A stretch of DNA of 10,545 nucleotides from a virus (lineage: Duplodnaviria; Heunggongvirae; Uroviricota; Caudoviricetes): IMG/VR virus record IMGVR_UViG_2909303794_000003; one strand, given 5' to 3'. The position numbers and the translations under genes are program-made. The notes below the pieces were generated by a model, which was not told where the DNA came from, did no database searches, and saw nothing but the letters and a program-made list of their open reading frames with translations. How positions within the stretch are numbered: the first letter of the stretch is position 1; every line of letters starts with the position of its first letter. Shown piece by piece: positions 2,324-10,545 of this stretch.

Positions 2324-2628
2324 CTTGCTTTAGGGGGCTTCCTTAAAGATGCACAGATGAATATTACACTCGTTATCCTGAATCCCTATAACAGTACTGT
2401 ATTGTACTCCATGCTGATGTTCTCAGGATTTGTTGATTACATTCAGGCAGTAGCCGATCCAAATGAAAAAACGAATGAAATGACAGTTTACGTGAATAGC
2501 ATTTATAAGAAGCTGGACAGACAGCCACCACTAATTGCTGCCAATTCAGTATATCAATCTCTCTATAAAGGGGATGAATACTTTAGTTTATTAGGACAGG
2601 TGAATCAGGATCAAACGTGGAGATACAA

Positions 2629-2632
<4 letters not shown>
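2324..2632 (+). pseudogene. probable 3' remnant of a phage tail gene truncated by the IS2 event
   Basis: The reading frame is open from the IS2 junction (first full codon 2324) to TGA at 2630-2632. The ATG at 2357 has no convincing SD. The stop overlaps the next start (ATGA), which is typical of tail-operon coupling. No family recognised. Confidence 0.45.
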
Positions 2633-6220
<3,588 letters not shown>

Positions 6221-6221
<1 letters not shown>

Positions 6222-6520
6222 TGGCACAGGGTTTACAATGCTGGGATGCATCTGGACGATTAATTGTCGATATTGGTGATTACAACATGCGGTACATGGG
6301 ATCAGTCAATCTTAATGTATCGGCTGGTAGTACTACATCATGGAATGTAGCCTGGTCGGGTATGCGTCCAACGGGTTGGTTGGCAGTAATGCGAGTGAGT
6401 CAGTACTGGAATGAGTTTTACTGTATTCCGGGTACTAACGCTTTCACCGTTCAATATCTTCCAGTGAGTGGCGTTTATGCCCAAACATTAACATTCGATA
6501 TATACAAATATGACGTGTAA
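6221..6520 (+). CDS. hypothetical tail-associated protein, 99 aa (paralogue of the domains in 6529-7176)
   Basis: ATG 6221 overlaps the J-like stop (TAATG); the track's GTG 6215 is less likely. N-terminal motif GLQCWDASGRLIVD and later YCIPG are shared with the next gene. The composition is beta-rich. Confidence 0.7.
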
Positions 6521-6528
6521 GGATCACT

Positions 6529-7176
6529 ATGTCAGGTTTTCAGGTTTACAATTCAGCAGGTGCTCTTACGATAGATTCCGATAATAAATCGGTCGTAATG
6601 AGTTCCGTTAAAGCAATGGGCACACTCTCAGATACAGGGTATTACCTCATTAACAGTGCTTTTGGTAATGGAAGTACGTTGGGGTATCTGCCTCTAAATT
6701 TCTTCCCCAATACGGGACTACGCTGGTTCCAGCTACAGACAAATGGAAAGTACTGTTTTCCCGGCTCGGCAATGTTCGAGGCAGGTTCAGGGCGGTTCAT
6801 GCTCTCCAGTAATACCACGGCTCTTACATCGGGCTATCTCGATGTGTATAACAGTGCTGGAACATTGATCTGGTCTGCTGCCAGTGCGGGTACAATGCCA
6901 CGTATTCAGGGTTTCCTTACCGTGCCATCCTCTCATGATCTCGGTACTGCCTTGACGCTTACGACGAGTTTTGCCGATCCGTGGATATGCATTAGTCAGT
7001 GTCCGGGCAACATATCCGATGATGGCGGCACAGTTGGCTATTCCGGCATTCTCATTAAAAGGAATAGCAGTACTTCATTCTCTTTACAGTATGTGAATAA
7101 GAACCAGAAGGCATATCGACAGGCAATGGGGAACAGCGGATTTCAAATTGCTTTAGCAAGTTTCACTGGTTATTGA
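6529..7176 (+). CDS. hypothetical tail-associated protein, 215 aa, two tandem copies of the same ~100-aa domain
   Basis: AGGA lies 6 nt before ATG 6529. GFQVYNSAGALTID...YCFPG in the first half, and YLDVYNSAGTLIWS...QCPG in the second half. Confidence 0.75.
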   Translation: MSGFQVYNSAGALTIDSDNKSVVMSSVKAMGTLSDTGYYLINSAFGNGSTLGYLPLNFFPNTGLRWFQLQTNGKYCFPGSAMFEAGSGRFMLSSNTTALTSGYLDVYNSAGTLIWSAASAGTMPRIQGFLTVPSSHDLGTALTLTTSFADPWICISQCPGNISDDGGTVGYSGILIKRNSSTSFSLQYVNKNQKAYRQAMGNSGFQIALASFTGY

Positions 7177-7213
7177 TATAAATACTCATAATAACAATAA
7201 TAAGGCATAATGT

Positions 7214-7486
7214 ATGGATTTCGGTACTATTGTTGCTCTTGTTATCGCTGGCCTTGGTTTTCTTTATACGATATTCCGTGACAGTTCTTCTGATACTGAA
7301 GATTTACTCACGCGAGTTTCGCAAATTGAAGCAAAGATACAACTGCACAGTAGCAGTATAGACCGCCTCGAAACAGAGCAGGATGAAATGAAGAAGACAT
7401 TACGTAATCTCGAAGATCAAATTCATCAACTGGATTTGAAGATTGAGCGTATTCTGACAATTCTCGAAAAGACAAAAGGGGCATAA
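7214..7486 (+). CDS. membrane-anchored coiled-coil protein, 90 aa (one N-terminal TM); possibly lysis-related
   Basis: ATG 7214 with AAGG upstream. TM segment FGTIVALVIAGLGFLYTIF is followed by a heptad-like helix (LLTRVSQIEAKIQLHSSSIDRLETEQDEMKKTLRNLEDQIHQLDLKIERILTILEK). It is convergent with the lysozyme gene. Function is inferred only. Confidence 0.7.
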   Translation: MDFGTIVALVIAGLGFLYTIFRDSSSDTEDLLTRVSQIEAKIQLHSSSIDRLETEQDEMKKTLRNLEDQIHQLDLKIERILTILEKTKGA

Positions 7487-7495
7487 TGCCCCTTT
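7475..7495. terminator. bidirectional rho-independent terminator
   Basis: Stem AAAGGGGC (7475-7482) pairs with GCCCCTTT (7488-7495), loop ATAAT. T-rich sequence follows on the plus strand (GTTATTTTA) and TTTTGTC follows on the minus strand. It lies exactly between the convergent stops at 7486 (+) and 7497 (-). Confidence 0.75.
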
Positions 7496-7496
7496 G

Positions 7497-7940
7497 TTAT
7501 TTTAATTGATTATTCATATCTCTTACCCGGTTTGGCGTTTGCCTGTACCATAATGAATCAACGGACTCACGCCGCACACCATCACGATCTCCCGCCTTTG
7601 CTGCTGCCAGTAGTTTTCTGAATTTACTTACGCCATTCACCCCTAACTGAAAAATCATGATGATCAGATAGTCCTCAATATCGGCAGGAAGAGTACCCAA
7701 ACGTAATGTACTTAATCCTGTCCGGGCAACTGCAATATCTTTATCAAGTAAAGTCTCTGCCTCATTCGGGGATAATCCAGTACTGAAAATTTCCCCTGAT
7801 TTGATTAAATGTCCATACCCGACAGTGCTGAATCCCAATGAGTCAGAGTATGGGAAGAACTTTCCATTACGGAAGTACCCCAATTTTGTCTGATAGGCAA
7901 TCGTGCCTTTATATTCCTTAAGTCTGCTTTTTAAATCCAT
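7497..7940 (-). CDS. endolysin, T4-type lysozyme (glycoside hydrolase family 24), 147 aa
   Basis: The E-8x-D-5x-T type catalytic context (LKEYKG ... YSDSLGFSTVGYGH) and the C-terminal SLWYRQTPNRV resemble T4 lysozyme (WYNQTPNRA). There is no N-terminal TM or signal, so it is holin-dependent. Confidence 0.9.
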   Translation of the reverse strand: MDLKSRLKEYKGTIAYQTKLGYFRNGKFFPYSDSLGFSTVGYGHLIKSGEIFSTGLSPNEAETLLDKDIAVARTGLSTLRLGTLPADIEDYLIIMIFQLGVNGVSKFRKLLAAAKAGDRDGVRRESVDSLWYRQTPNRVRDMNNQLK

Positions 7941-7981
7941 TCACTAAATACCTATATAAATTACATATGGGTATTTAGTGA
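7941..7981. repeat. perfect 12-bp inverted repeat filling the divergent intergenic region
   Basis: TCACTAAATACC (7941-7952) and GGTATTTAGTGA (7970-7981), separated by 17 nt of AT-rich spacer (TATATAAATTACATATG). The left arm abuts the lysozyme start codon (7938-7940). The right arm overlaps the first base of ATG 7981. Confidence 0.7.
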
Positions 7982-8430
7982 TGAGAATTAATAACAACTG
8001 GACGATGTTCGAACCAGAACAATGGGATATCAAGGAAGTAAATGAAGGTCTGTACTGTTCATTTGTGTACTTAATTGAATTTCCCGAAACGGGGGAGTAC
8101 TACTTCGGGAAGAAGCAGATATATAAAGGTATCAAAGATATTTCAAACCTTAAGGGTACTTCAACGGAAAGCAACTGGCTGGATTATACGGGCAGCAGTA
8201 AAAGTGTAAATGCCATGATTGATTCAGGTATGGAGTACTCAAAAAGGATTCTGTACTGCTTTAAAACTGATGCTGAAGCCACTTTAATTGAAACTGCATT
8301 GATTAGCTATTACGGCTTACATCCCGACAATCTCAATAAAGCCATTCTGTGTAAATCCCGATTGCCAAAAAATCGAATTGAATTGTTCCGGGTGCTACAG
8401 AGTTTGATCGAAATGTTGGGCGTGAGGTAA
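7981..8430 (+). CDS. GIY-YIG nuclease-domain protein, Seg-like, 149 aa
   Basis: ATG 7981 (the track's GTG 7978 is one codon upstream). FVYLIEF...GEYYFGKK (the GIY/YIG pair), then W-x-DYTGSSKSVNAMIDSG...KRILYCF...AEATLIETALI...NLNK. This matches the Y-x-GSG...L..AI..G...IL...EA..E..I layout of phage Seg/GIY-YIG homing endonucleases. There is no obvious C-terminal DNA-binding module. Confidence 0.65.
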   Translation: MRINNNWTMFEPEQWDIKEVNEGLYCSFVYLIEFPETGEYYFGKKQIYKGIKDISNLKGTSTESNWLDYTGSSKSVNAMIDSGMEYSKRILYCFKTDAEATLIETALISYYGLHPDNLNKAILCKSRLPKNRIELFRVLQSLIEMLGVR

Positions 8431-8432
8431 AT

Positions 8433-9002
8433 ATGATTAGAGGCAGAATAACAGGGCTGAATAACGCAACAACCTATCTTAATACTACAGGTCAACGTCT
8501 TGGACGTGACTTTCAGAATGAAATAATCAAAAGGTCAAGGGCGTTATCAGCCAAAATGCAAATGGACTTAAACAATGCCGTCGATAAAGGAGCAGTACCT
8601 TTCACTCAGCGTTCCATTCTCTTTATGTACAAGAAAGTTGGTAATGGAGTTCGCAGTACTATTCTCGTGAAGGATCTACAAGCGAAGTACTTATATGACG
8701 TACTTGTTGAGGAAAAAGCCCTTGATAAGTTTGTACCAACGAGTAAGGCACGTCTTGATCGGTTCGGTAACATTGCAGGGTTGAAACGTAATCTATCAAA
8801 TGGGCGTTATAAGGTCATTAAAGGGAAGAATGGTAAAGAGCGATTGATTGATACCAGCCAGAAGAAGAAAGAAAAGCGAGTAATTGGATTACGTGAAAGT
8901 AAGAAACGTAAAATCATTTATGATTTCTATGCAGAAGCAGAGAAGGGGGCAAGACTTGTTCTCGCAGGGATACAGGGATCGTTTGTTATAAAAAAGGGAT
9001 AA
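8433..9002 (+). CDS. hypothetical protein, 189 aa, lysine-rich C-terminal half
   Basis: GAGG lies 5 nt before ATG 8433, and the gene is tightly packed with its neighbours. The N-terminus (MIRGRITGLNNATTYLNTTGQRL...) vaguely resembles HK97 gp10-type head-tail proteins, but I cannot support that call. Confidence 0.7.
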   Translation: MIRGRITGLNNATTYLNTTGQRLGRDFQNEIIKRSRALSAKMQMDLNNAVDKGAVPFTQRSILFMYKKVGNGVRSTILVKDLQAKYLYDVLVEEKALDKFVPTSKARLDRFGNIAGLKRNLSNGRYKVIKGKNGKERLIDTSQKKKEKRVIGLRESKKRKIIYDFYAEAEKGARLVLAGIQGSFVIKKG

Positions 9003-9003
9003 T

Positions 9004-9315
9004 ATGAATTTTGAAGAACACTATGGTGAACTTACGAGTGAGATAACGCTGAATGGTACTATACCAGATGGTAATAGTATGCCAATCAACAAGTGCTTTC
9101 TCGGAAAGAAGTTCCAGAAGCAATTGAAGAAAGCAGATATACAGATTGAGTGCTTTATGAATATCTGCTACGAGAAAAAACAAAGTTTTAAAGATGGTGA
9201 AGTACTCACATGGTCACTACAGGGTGATGAAATGGATGTGTACTTAATCGAAAGTAAAAGGTTATTTGTAAAGGGAAAGCACTTTTGGGGATATTGTGTG
9301 GGGATCATTGAATGA
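9004..9315 (+). CDS. hypothetical protein, 103 aa
   Basis: AAGGGA precedes ATG 9004, which lies 1 nt after the upstream stop. The stop overlaps the next start (ATGA). No family recognised. Confidence 0.65.
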   Translation: MNFEEHYGELTSEITLNGTIPDGNSMPINKCFLGKKFQKQLKKADIQIECFMNICYEKKQSFKDGEVLTWSLQGDEMDVYLIESKRLFVKGKHFWGYCVGIIE

Positions 9316-9602
9316 TTGGAATGATAATTGATTTAATCAAAACTGGATTGGGCTTCTTCCAGAAAAAAGAACAAAGCAAACAGGAACTGGACGCACAGAA
9401 CAGTCACGAGCAGAACGAGATCACACTTGAAGAAACACGTAAGGGCTTCACGTGGCGACAGGGTTTAGGCTGGGTACTAACGTTCATCATTCTATGGAAC
9501 TACGTCATTGTGCCAGTACTGGCATTGTGTGGTGTAGTACTTCCCATAGTTCCACTTGATGAAATATGGAAAGTACTGATCATCTTAATCGGTGGGAGTT
9601 GA
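9312..9602 (+). CDS. holin-like protein of the GTA-type 3-TM holin family, 96 aa
   Basis: N-terminal amphipathic and charged segment (KKEQSKQELDAQNSHEQNEITLEE), then FTWRQGLGWVLTFIILWNYVIVPVLALCGVVLPIVPLDEIWKVLIILIGG. The W-R-x-x-x-G-W plus hydrophobic helices pattern is as I recall it for the Pfam family named Holin of 3TMs, for gene-transfer release. Confidence 0.55.
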   Translation: MIGMIIDLIKTGLGFFQKKEQSKQELDAQNSHEQNEITLEETRKGFTWRQGLGWVLTFIILWNYVIVPVLALCGVVLPIVPLDEIWKVLIILIGGS

Positions 9603-10283
9603 TTTTGTCTCTCTAAACAATACTCGCCATGAAGTAAGCCATGTTGAAGGGAGGATTTGGGTAAGTGCGAAGGCTGGTATGAAACTCAAATTATGAAATT
9701 CCCAATTCTTCTTGCGTGCCATACCACTTACATCTTGACATATGTTAATCATTTTATCGCTAATGATAATAAAGTTGTAGTAATGTGTTATACATTGTTC
9801 AAGTTCTTTAGACTTGTCTGGATGTACTTCAATGTTCCAAACTCGTAATATATCTAATTGCGATTTCAATTTAATCAGATGATCTTTATAATCAGCATGC
9901 AAGTCATTTACCTTAGAGTTTTTGCTTTGGTACTCTTTATCGGTGATGTTAAGATCTTTATTTCCTAACATTTCATACATATCATTGATATAAGTATGTA
10001 ATATTTCCGCCTTTACTTTCGCTTCAATAAAGTAACTGATATAAACGTTTGCTTGTTCAAAACCTTTTTCATTAAGTTTTGAATCTAACCATCTATAAAC
10101 TTTAAAAACTGTGATGAGTGCTATTACTGCCATTATAGTATCCATGATTGCTGATGTAGTAGAGCTATCATATCCATGAAGTAATAGTAAATCGGTGTAA
10201 ATTGGTATTAATGCACCAATAGCAAGACATGCAATATGTGAAAATCTTATTTCATTTCTGATTTTTTTTAAAATCACTTTCAA
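9585..10283 (-). CDS. AT-rich two-TM membrane protein with ~165-aa helical C-terminal domain, 232 aa; candidate moron (exclusion/abortive-infection-like)
   Basis: The only long ORF in this stretch. It starts at TTG (10283) or GTG (10277, 9 nt from an AGGGA SD-like box), and the first internal Met is about 47 codons in. TM1 is FSHIACLAIGALIPIYTDLLLL and TM2 is AIMDTIMAVIALITVFKVY. Seven 60-nt lines counted inside it gave 27-32% G+C. No family recognised. Confidence 0.7.
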   Translation of the reverse strand: MKVILKKIRNEIRFSHIACLAIGALIPIYTDLLLLHGYDSSTTSAIMDTIMAVIALITVFKVYRWLDSKLNEKGFEQANVYISYFIEAKVKAEILHTYINDMYEMLGNKDLNITDKEYQSKNSKVNDLHADYKDHLIKLKSQLDILRVWNIEVHPDKSKELEQCITHYYNFIIISDKMINICQDVSGMARKKNWEFHNLSFIPAFALTQILPSTWLTSWRVLFRETKSTPTD

Positions 10284-10305
10284 AGCATCCCTATGAAATT
10301 ATTGG

Positions 10306-10330
10306 AAAGCCTGTATATAGCACAGGCTTT
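10306..10330 (-). terminator. terminator-like hairpin between the two minus-strand genes
   Basis: AAAGCCTGT (10306-10314) pairs with ACAGGCTTT (10322-10330) with a 7-nt loop. It starts 6 nt downstream (minus sense) of the stop of the 10336-10545 gene. The A/T tracts form part of the stem and the trailing U-tract on the minus strand is weak. Confidence 0.45.
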
Positions 10331-10335
10331 TATTG

Positions 10336-10545
10336 TTACCAATCCCAATCAATAGTAGTATCCAAATCACGCAAGTTAGTATGTTCTGTGCGAGTCGCTA
10401 CGAGAACAACATCACCAGTTTCTTTCGAAACAATATCAAAAACTTCAATTTCCGTTTGGCCCATTGTACCTTTCGTTCTAAAACTCTTTCTGACGTAAGT
10501 GTATTTTTCTTTTGGATAATTACTTTCAAATAATGCTTCATTCAT
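10336..10545 (-). CDS. hypothetical protein, 69 aa
   Basis: The ATG sits at the window edge (10545-10543), with stop TAA at 10338-10336. Sequence is MNEALFESNYPKEKYTYVRKSFRTKGTMGQTEIEVFDIVSKETGDVVLVATRTEHTNLRDLDTTIDWDW. G+C is about 39% (two lines counted), like the backbone. The upstream region is not visible, so the start is unverified. Confidence 0.55.
   Translation of the reverse strand: MNEALFESNYPKEKYTYVRKSFRTKGTMGQTEIEVFDIVSKETGDVVLVATRTEHTNLRDLDTTIDWDW

Follow-up and report, generated by a model that had tools for sequence, protein, structure and literature searches.

We analyzed a 10,545-nucleotide stretch of DNA (the window; IMG/VR virus record IMGVR_UViG_2909303794_000003) that forms the right-hand portion of an Escherichia coli prophage. 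Near its end lies an open reading frame (ORF) for a 232-residue protein, which an earlier note, made from the sequence alone, had put forward as a compositionally foreign candidate for phage exclusion or defense. The ORF is a real gene under selection and belongs to an undescribed superfamily of Enterobacterales prophages. It is a positionally conserved, long-resident, fast-diversifying cargo family and not a one-off foreign insertion. Protection of the host against other phages is a reasonable candidate function. The reading we prefer, at a probability of roughly 45%, is an anti-phage membrane protein expressed in the lysogen that combines a variable cytoplasmic sensor with a constant membrane effector. 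This reading draws on selection, architecture, cargo status, modularity, and hints about expression from start codons and intergenic gaps.

Conserved length and sequence constraint show that the gene is genuine. All 13 close clusters, at 51-90% identity, encode 224-235 residues, and pairwise ratios of nonsynonymous to synonymous substitution rates (dN/dS) are 0.2-0.25, with the synonymous rate (dS) saturated for distant pairs. More than 140 E. coli contigs carry a product identical to that of the window, called from three different starts that give 232, 230, or 182 residues. As the earlier note had described, the gene is opposite in orientation to the adjacent operon and has a non-ATG start. 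It converges on the late operon, overlapping the 3′ end of the final operon gene, which encodes a 96-aa holin-like protein, by 18 nt. No ATG precedes the first transmembrane (TM) helix, leaving TTG 10283 or GTG 10277 as the only starts. Across the family, GTG or TTG is the start at 6 of 10 loci, and five loci besides the window use GTG.

The ORF has a G+C content of 31.5% (27% at third codon positions, GC3) compared with 41.8% for the backbone (positions 2341-9584). Against 65 backbone segments of 700 nt, the lowest at 37.7%, this corresponds to z = −4.1. The contrast drawn in the earlier note thus stood, with its backbone value of about 41% close to ours and its figure of about 29% for the ORF too low. 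The reported loss of GTAC/AGTACT enrichment was also recovered, as 2 GTAC sites were counted versus 7.7 predicted from backbone density (Poisson P = 0.017). Because 2.0 sites are expected from base composition, the ORF is not depleted in GTAC but merely lacks the backbone excess. Dinucleotide relative abundance in the ORF showed no deviation (z = −0.1). Positions 201-1000 also have low G+C (31-34%), which is therefore not unique to the ORF within the window.

An AlphaFold (AF2) model of the protein (mean predicted local distance difference test, pLDDT, of 78, rising to 83-95 in the bundle) agrees with the two N-terminal TM helices and helical C-terminal domain proposed earlier. The second TM helix runs unbroken into the first bundle helix, forming a single long helix from residue 40 to 106. 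The tail strand (residues 223-225) pairs with a strand at residues 151-153 in the loop after helix 2, and Phe223 is nearly invariant throughout the superfamily. Charge distribution (+5/−1 in the N-terminal tail and +4/−2 after the second TM helix) leaves a 7-residue loop as the sole periplasmic part. By the positive-inside rule, both termini and the bundle of this inner-membrane protein are predicted to be cytoplasmic. Invariant residues concentrate in and around the membrane, where the juxtamembrane motif KxNEKGF is also invariant. Polar or charged positions of the TM module that are invariant or nearly so include His16, Asp31, His36, Asp39, and Asp48, the last of which, in the second TM helix, is conserved in at least 90% of members.

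A profile search of 1.8 billion representatives returned 85 representative proteins at E-values up to 0.001, nearly all of 215-280 residues. Named members, all annotated as hypothetical, come only from Enterobacterales (Escherichia, Klebsiella, Enterobacter, Cronobacter, Pectobacterium, Yersinia, and Rahnella). TM segments are confined to the first 80 residues in 65 of 70 representatives, and a class II relative (P0056, 263 aa) follows the same overall plan. In line with the earlier note, which asserted no homology, no described homologue emerged. Queries with the ORF against Pfam, PHROGs, and NCBIfam gave nothing meaningful, 70 divergent family members searched against Pfam and PHROGs gave scattered singletons only, and a profile search of Protein Data Bank (PDB) sequences matched only designed coiled coils.

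Sequence comparison shows that the two-TM module is constant and that the cytoplasmic bundle is exchanged by recombination. Among Pectobacterium members, residues 1-66 have a median identity of 77%, compared with 23% for the remainder, which equals the shuffled background. Between loci L008 and L026, the TM part has a dS of 0.22, whereas the bundle has a dS of 1.8 and a nonsynonymous rate (dN) of 0.72. At the end of a T7-like prophage of Yersinia enterocolitica (L031, 7185-8816), tandem paralogues of 266 and 271 aa lie 15 nt apart and differ in their C-terminal domains.

Comparison with the E. coli prophage AREA_C483 delimits the slot that the gene occupies. Homology (74%) ends at position 9598 and returns (96.6%) at about 10586. 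Between these points, 988 bp with the 232-aa gene, a hairpin, and a 69-aa gene are replaced in AREA_C483 by 501 bp encoding an unrelated, secreted 143-aa protein. Other relatives carry a 264-aa, a truncated 181-aa, or a soluble 94-aa protein in the slot, bearing out the description of the gene as accessory and exchangeable. A scan of these alternative slot genes for known defense or Pfam domains gave no match. The 264-aa alternative, encoded on the other strand, shares only the N-terminal two-TM module (hhalign probability 95.5%, E = 1.4e-8).

The usual occupant of the slot is a family member, encoded on the strand opposite to the holin gene and directly after it. Such occupants were found in E. 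coli G3/10 and FDN-24, in Cronobacter and Enterobacter, in a metagenome contig, and in ten IMG/VR prophages, where the family member is the terminal gene. They are 30-59% identical to the window protein, similar to the 30-66% of the backbone proteins, with the two sets of identities not tracking each other. A G+C content of about 31% is a family trait in every host, next to flanking DNA of 39% to 56%; the homologues in L008 and L012, for instance, have about 31% compared with 37-38% for their backbones. Since a family member is usual at the same position, at such identities, and low G+C is family-wide, the label "foreign" is misleading.

Family members are also retained outside intact prophages. 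Some lie beside a prophage-borne ybhA-type phosphatase gene in short islets, and others persist in small remnants with CI and a recombinase that lack any structural or lysis genes. Two remnant copies (L010 and L016) show a dN/dS of 0.25. Neighbors in the remnants include genes for a retron-type reverse transcriptase/STM3845, SLATT_5, and DUF3800, and a distant member in a lambda-like Pectobacterium prophage adjoins DarT/DarG. Both these DarTG, retron-type reverse transcriptase, and SLATT neighbors and the location of family members at prophage ends fit the accessory-gene reading of the earlier note.

As separate observations on these loci, prophages inserted in the host ybhA gene (L008, L017, L018, L026, and others) leave ybhA fragments of 73 and 188 aa and carry their own full-length pyridoxal phosphatase (ybhA-like) gene at the prophage end, which apparently compensates for the disrupted copy. 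The L010 record is labeled Pseudomonas cerasi, and its family member is flanked by pgl, a ybhA-like gene, modCBA, acrZ, modE, modF, galT, and galK. Because this gene order is enterobacterial, the organism label is probably wrong or the contig is a contaminant.

In the mechanism we propose, the lysogen would produce the 232-aa protein at a low level and the variable cytoplasmic bundle would recognize a phage component. The constant two-TM module would then oligomerize and perturb the inner membrane, causing abortive infection and thereby protecting the lysogen from other phages. It is the variability of the bundle that suggests its role as a sensor. Superinfection exclusion, in which the protein would directly stop phage DNA from entering at the inner membrane, is a close second mechanism.

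Low expression in the lysogen is suggested by the weak TTG or GTG starts, by its location, which is either past a leaky terminator or downstream from the ybhA-like phosphatase gene, and by the absence of a terminator against late transcripts, which would run antisense through the gene. The hairpin between the 69-aa and 232-aa genes (stem 10305-10314/10322-10331) is stable on both strands, at −13.2 (+) and −12.6 (−) kcal/mol with z of about −3.3. It is retained wherever the two genes adjoin, once with a wholly different stem sequence. The earlier note correctly placed a hairpin here and read it as insulating the gene from its upstream neighbor. Because the better T-run lies on the + strand, it reads better as a terminator of the late-operon strand, and late transcripts probably cross the 232-aa gene in antisense and stop there. 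Where relatives lack the holin overlap, a bidirectional hairpin rich in G+C separates the two convergent genes; the window allele has none.

Two arrangements upstream of the gene bear on its transcription. Where the 69-aa gene lies upstream, the start codon follows the hairpin by only about 25 nt, and the simplest route to expression would be transcription reading through a weak terminator. A site read by hand over the hairpin loop (TTGGTA-N17-TGcTATATA) is not conserved in L011 or L013, and we do not claim it as a promoter. Where the phosphatase gene lies upstream, in ybhA-integrated prophages, the gap is 27 nt and contains GGAG with no hairpin or terminator, suggesting co-transcription with the phosphatase, a gene that needs to be expressed in the lysogen.

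Several points weigh against an anti-phage role. No likeness to known defense or exclusion proteins was found in PADLOC, Pfam, PHROGs, NCBIfam, or the PDB, and PADLOC-DB 2.0 returned no defense-protein model for the ORF at E ≤ 0.1. The fold is little guide to function, four-helix bundles being generic. A promoter scan gave no consensus sigma-70 promoter for the 232-aa or the 69-aa gene, and expression of the window allele may be poor given that its ancestral ATG is now AGG. A near-core position by the holin gene across the lineage would be equally expected if the protein served lysis or some function specific to the phage. The TM module and loop could be invariant because they bind a conserved membrane protein of the host, and not because they form a pore. 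Finally, the prophage in the window is truncated by an insertion sequence (IS) and so does not itself prove current use of the gene.

A bolder version of the anti-phage reading strikes us as possible but doubtful. In this version, the family would be a new single-gene, polymorphic immunity superfamily in which a membrane-permeabilizing two-TM effector with buried Asp and His residues is combined with interchangeable bundle sensors that differ in the phage trigger they respond to. The prophage end would then constitute a lineage-wide "immune locus," silenced by antisense late transcription when the prophage goes lytic.

Among the alternatives, a host-directed membrane protein of lysogenic conversion, unrelated to phages, fares best, and we consider it unlikely. 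The two-TM module might, for example, modulate an inner-membrane transporter or sensor, with the bundle as a cytoplasmic adaptor. The TM helices and tiny periplasmic loop are the most conserved parts, as an interaction with a conserved partner in the host would predict, and the bundle resembles sensor bundles. At many loci, moreover, the gene is co-oriented with and 27 nt downstream of the phosphatase gene that replaces disrupted ybhA, and it is kept in prophage remnants. However, C-terminal domains at background identity behind near-identical N-termini, intragenic swaps, and tandem paralogues are signatures of conflict systems, not of housekeeping modulators, and defense genes are often neighbors.

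Control of lysis timing in its own phage, in which the protein would act on the neighboring 3TM holin, for example as its antiholin or regulator, is improbable. The gene adjoins the holin-like gene in nearly all members of the lineage, overlapping it in the window and in L018, and the class II relative lies directly downstream of a holin in the same direction. Class II holins are likewise small two-TM proteins with both termini inside. Strand alone is no bar to a lytic role, as this phage encodes its lysozyme on the opposite strand as well. Against this role, purifying selection persists in remnants without holin or lysozyme, and members in the lambda-like and T7-like prophages do not adjoin lysis genes. 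Some relatives carry the secreted 143-aa or soluble 94-aa protein instead. Furthermore, neither the ORF nor family members match a holin or antiholin family in Pfam or PHROGs, whereas the 96-aa neighbor does.

We regard as quite improbable the proposal that the window allele is a decaying or barely translated relic. Three codons before TTG 10283, the window allele reads AGG and sister alleles read ATG (MDALKV...). In addition, gene callers disagree on the start, and the prophage has been truncated. Nevertheless, the frame is intact across 232 codons, dN/dS against the ATG-bearing allele of L011 is 0.25, the identical protein recurs across contigs as described above, and allele P0105 has its ATG start at the position aligned with GTG 10277, which also has counterparts among the GTG starts at other loci. 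An obligate two-gene module of the 69-aa and 232-aa genes (toxin-antitoxin or regulator-effector) is very improbable and largely refuted by distribution. The earlier note had said only that the two may or may not act together. They are adjacent and co-oriented in the window, L011, L013, and L018 and share the replaced low-G+C segment, but L008, L010, L012, L016, L017, and L026-29 have a member of the 232-aa family and no 69-aa gene, the 69-aa gene accompanies unrelated slot genes in L019-L025 (gene at 6001-6210), and a conserved terminator hairpin stands between them.

The 69-aa gene is itself low in G+C (34.8%, GC3 25.7%) and, contrary to the earlier note, not backbone-like. Its product has no family match and is 62-100% identical among relatives. 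It is the most conserved gene of the region, at 71-75% identity where backbone proteins are at 30-66%. Coordinates of the features discussed are collected below.

Table 1. Features of the 232-aa gene, its slot, and the neighboring late region (window coordinates; residue numbers refer to the 232-aa protein).
Feature	Coordinates	Strand	Remarks
Coding sequence, 232 aa	9585-10283	−	TTG start at 10283 (230 aa from GTG 10277); stop 9585-9587
TM helix 1, residues about 14-36	10176-10244	−	Invariant S15, H16, G23, Y29, D31, H36
Short periplasmic loop, GYDSSTT region, residues 37-40 onward (37-39 in model)	10164-10175	−	Invariant D39, S40
TM helix 2, residues about 41-63	10095-10163	−	Invariant T42, S44, A45, M47, T49, M51, A55
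Four-helix bundle, residues 67-209 (to 106, 116-148, 155-182, 187-209)	9657-10085	−	pLDDT 83-95
Trp-rich C-terminal tail (LPSTWLTSWRVLF...)	9588-9656	−	Strand at 223-225
Hairpin between the 69-aa and 232-aa genes	10305-10331		A-tract and T-tract on both sides; better T-run (TTTTATTGTT) on + strand
Gene for 69-aa soluble protein	10336-10545	−	Same low-G+C replaced segment as the 232-aa gene
Variable slot	9599-10545, on to ~10586 (41 nt beyond window end)		No homology to AREA_C483
3TM holin-like gene, 96 aa	9312-9602	+	Weak GTA_holin_3TM match; homologue named "3TM-type holin" in RefSeq
SegE-type GIY-YIG protein gene	7978-8430		
Lysozyme gene	7497-7940	−	
Tail-tip protein gene	3018-6221		PF09327

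The window also encodes two proteins without assignment (189 and 103 aa). Several E. coli draft genomes carry DNA identical to the window from position 2323 to its end, with the 232-aa and 69-aa genes followed by an orphan methyltransferase gene, a DUF2188 gene, and then the chromosomal gene mipA, which places the 232-aa gene about 2 kb from the prophage end. Toward the left, an IS2-like element at about 1000-2340 (orfA/orfB at ~1038-2311) connects the truncated tail region with low-G+C DNA that matches the early region of AREA_C483, located about 20 kb away there. This junction indicates a large deletion and a defective prophage, from which head, packaging, and most tail genes have probably been lost.

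The prophages form a lineage of temperate siphoviruses that is not among deposited phages. Searches by megablast and tblastn against phage and plasmid reference collections gave no match, and distant matches occurred in only 5 of 5426 complete E. coli genomes. Two GTDB genome scans yielded no confirmed loci, and Rfam and tRNA scans found nothing. In every relative examined, the lysozyme gene lies in mid-operon on the strand opposite to the late genes, which is unusual for a gene encoding an endolysin. In the intact prophage L002, a DUF6216 gene (18868-19497) lies within the block of tail genes, on the opposite strand, and resembles a second moron-like insertion; the corresponding region is gone from the window through the IS-associated deletion.

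The backbone carries a strong GTAC signal, with 80 sites in positions 2341-9584 compared with 26.5 expected by composition and 62.5 by a second-order Markov model. Longer words are likewise in excess, as AGTACT occurs 27 times (2.2 expected), CAGTAC 19 times (1.6), and GTACTG 17 times (1.65). All three codon frames contain such sites, which places the signal at the DNA level. GCGC and CTAG are missing from the backbone, GGCC and AGCT are avoided, and the backbones of the related prophages L008 and L012 share a density of about 10 GTAC per kb. The orphan methyltransferase gene just beyond the window end, near this GTAC-rich backbone, is type-II-like.

If the function is confirmed, the known repertoire of prophage-encoded resistance to phages would gain an uncharacterized, easily cloned single-gene system, found in E. 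coli, Klebsiella, Enterobacter, Cronobacter, Pectobacterium, and Yersinia. The slot that follows the 3TM holin gene would then count as a previously unannotated diversity hotspot in a lineage absent from phage reference collections. A layout with a constant effector and swapped sensors, if true, would make the mapping of specificity by domain exchange straightforward. Should no phage phenotype appear, the protein would be one more conserved hypothetical prophage membrane protein. What is new would be the family itself, as its kind, prophage-encoded membrane exclusion or abortive-infection proteins, is already known.

Several known systems were considered for comparison. GiPD474, an ATPase (PMC12724215), and the mEpimmI phages (PMC11893012) are unrelated. 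SLATT proteins, to which the earlier note had likened the ORF, also have two TM helices with helical extensions and occur in conflict-system neighborhoods. We rejected this resemblance, as no SLATT Pfam model matched the ORF or any of the 70 family members, and the hhalign probability against a genuine SLATT_5 protein of L011 was 0.15%. SLATT-type partners (SMODS, SLOG, TIR) were not found, the neighbors being holin, 69-aa, phosphatase, and methyltransferase genes. The bundles of chemoreceptors and sensor kinases (Tar, Tsr, PcaY, TorS) share only the fold, at 4-12% identity, and de novo bundles score equally. Those bundles are periplasmic and lie between two TM helices, whereas that of the 232-aa protein is predicted to be cytoplasmic and follows both. 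Neither the ORF nor family members matched Pfam 4HB_MCP or TarH.

Phage morons are recognized by variable presence among close relatives, a deviant G+C content, their own promoter and terminator, and expression from the repressed prophage (Juhala/Hendrix; Cumby et al., PMC3594210). The 232-aa gene is variably present, being replaced by the 143-aa gene in AREA_C483 and by 264-, 181-, or 94-aa genes elsewhere, and its G+C departs from the backbone in the window (31.5% vs 41.8%, z = −4.1) as in L008 and L012. As for transcription signals, it has no consensus sigma-70 site, its hairpin lies upstream and not downstream, and its 3′ end overlaps the holin gene without a terminator. The HK97 gp15 morons, which mediate superinfection exclusion at the inner membrane (PMC3594210), are comparable as small inner-membrane proteins exchanged in the late region, present or absent among relatives, deviant in G+C from their neighbors, and expected to act at the inner membrane of the lysogen. 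In contrast, the 232-aa protein has no YebO/gp15-type match in Pfam or NCBIfam, is much larger, with a 140-aa cytoplasmic bundle, and is encoded by a gene for which the promoter scan gave no consensus promoter. Its family is a near-constant resident of the slot across the lineage and not an occasional insertion.

SieA of P22 is an inner-membrane protein with a fixed lineage position next to tail or late genes and types that are about 25% identical (PMC10883804). It has 162-164 residues (about 160-200 for SieA-type proteins), three predicted TM segments, the motif FxRYPxEAxxFNK, an uncertain start codon, and a conserved segment predicted to be cytoplasmic (PMC10883804). The 232-aa family likewise combines a fixed position with deep divergence, and it is SieA that the injection-block alternative would resemble. 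Unlike SieA, which lacks a bundle, the 232-aa protein has two TM helices and a four-helix bundle and lacks the FxRYPxEAxxFNK motif, and the host phage types are unrelated.

Fused sensor-effector abortive-infection proteins of the CapRel type pair a constant effector with a hypervariable C-terminal sensor. Relative to these proteins and to the two-TM effectors of CBASS, Pycsar, and retron systems, the 232-aa protein has no homology, no nucleotide-sensing or enzymatic domain, and no partner cyclase or reverse transcriptase gene. What it would share with them is the organization proposed here, namely a constant module joined to an allele-swapped recognition module, carried by a prophage as a single gene, with the membrane as the likely target.

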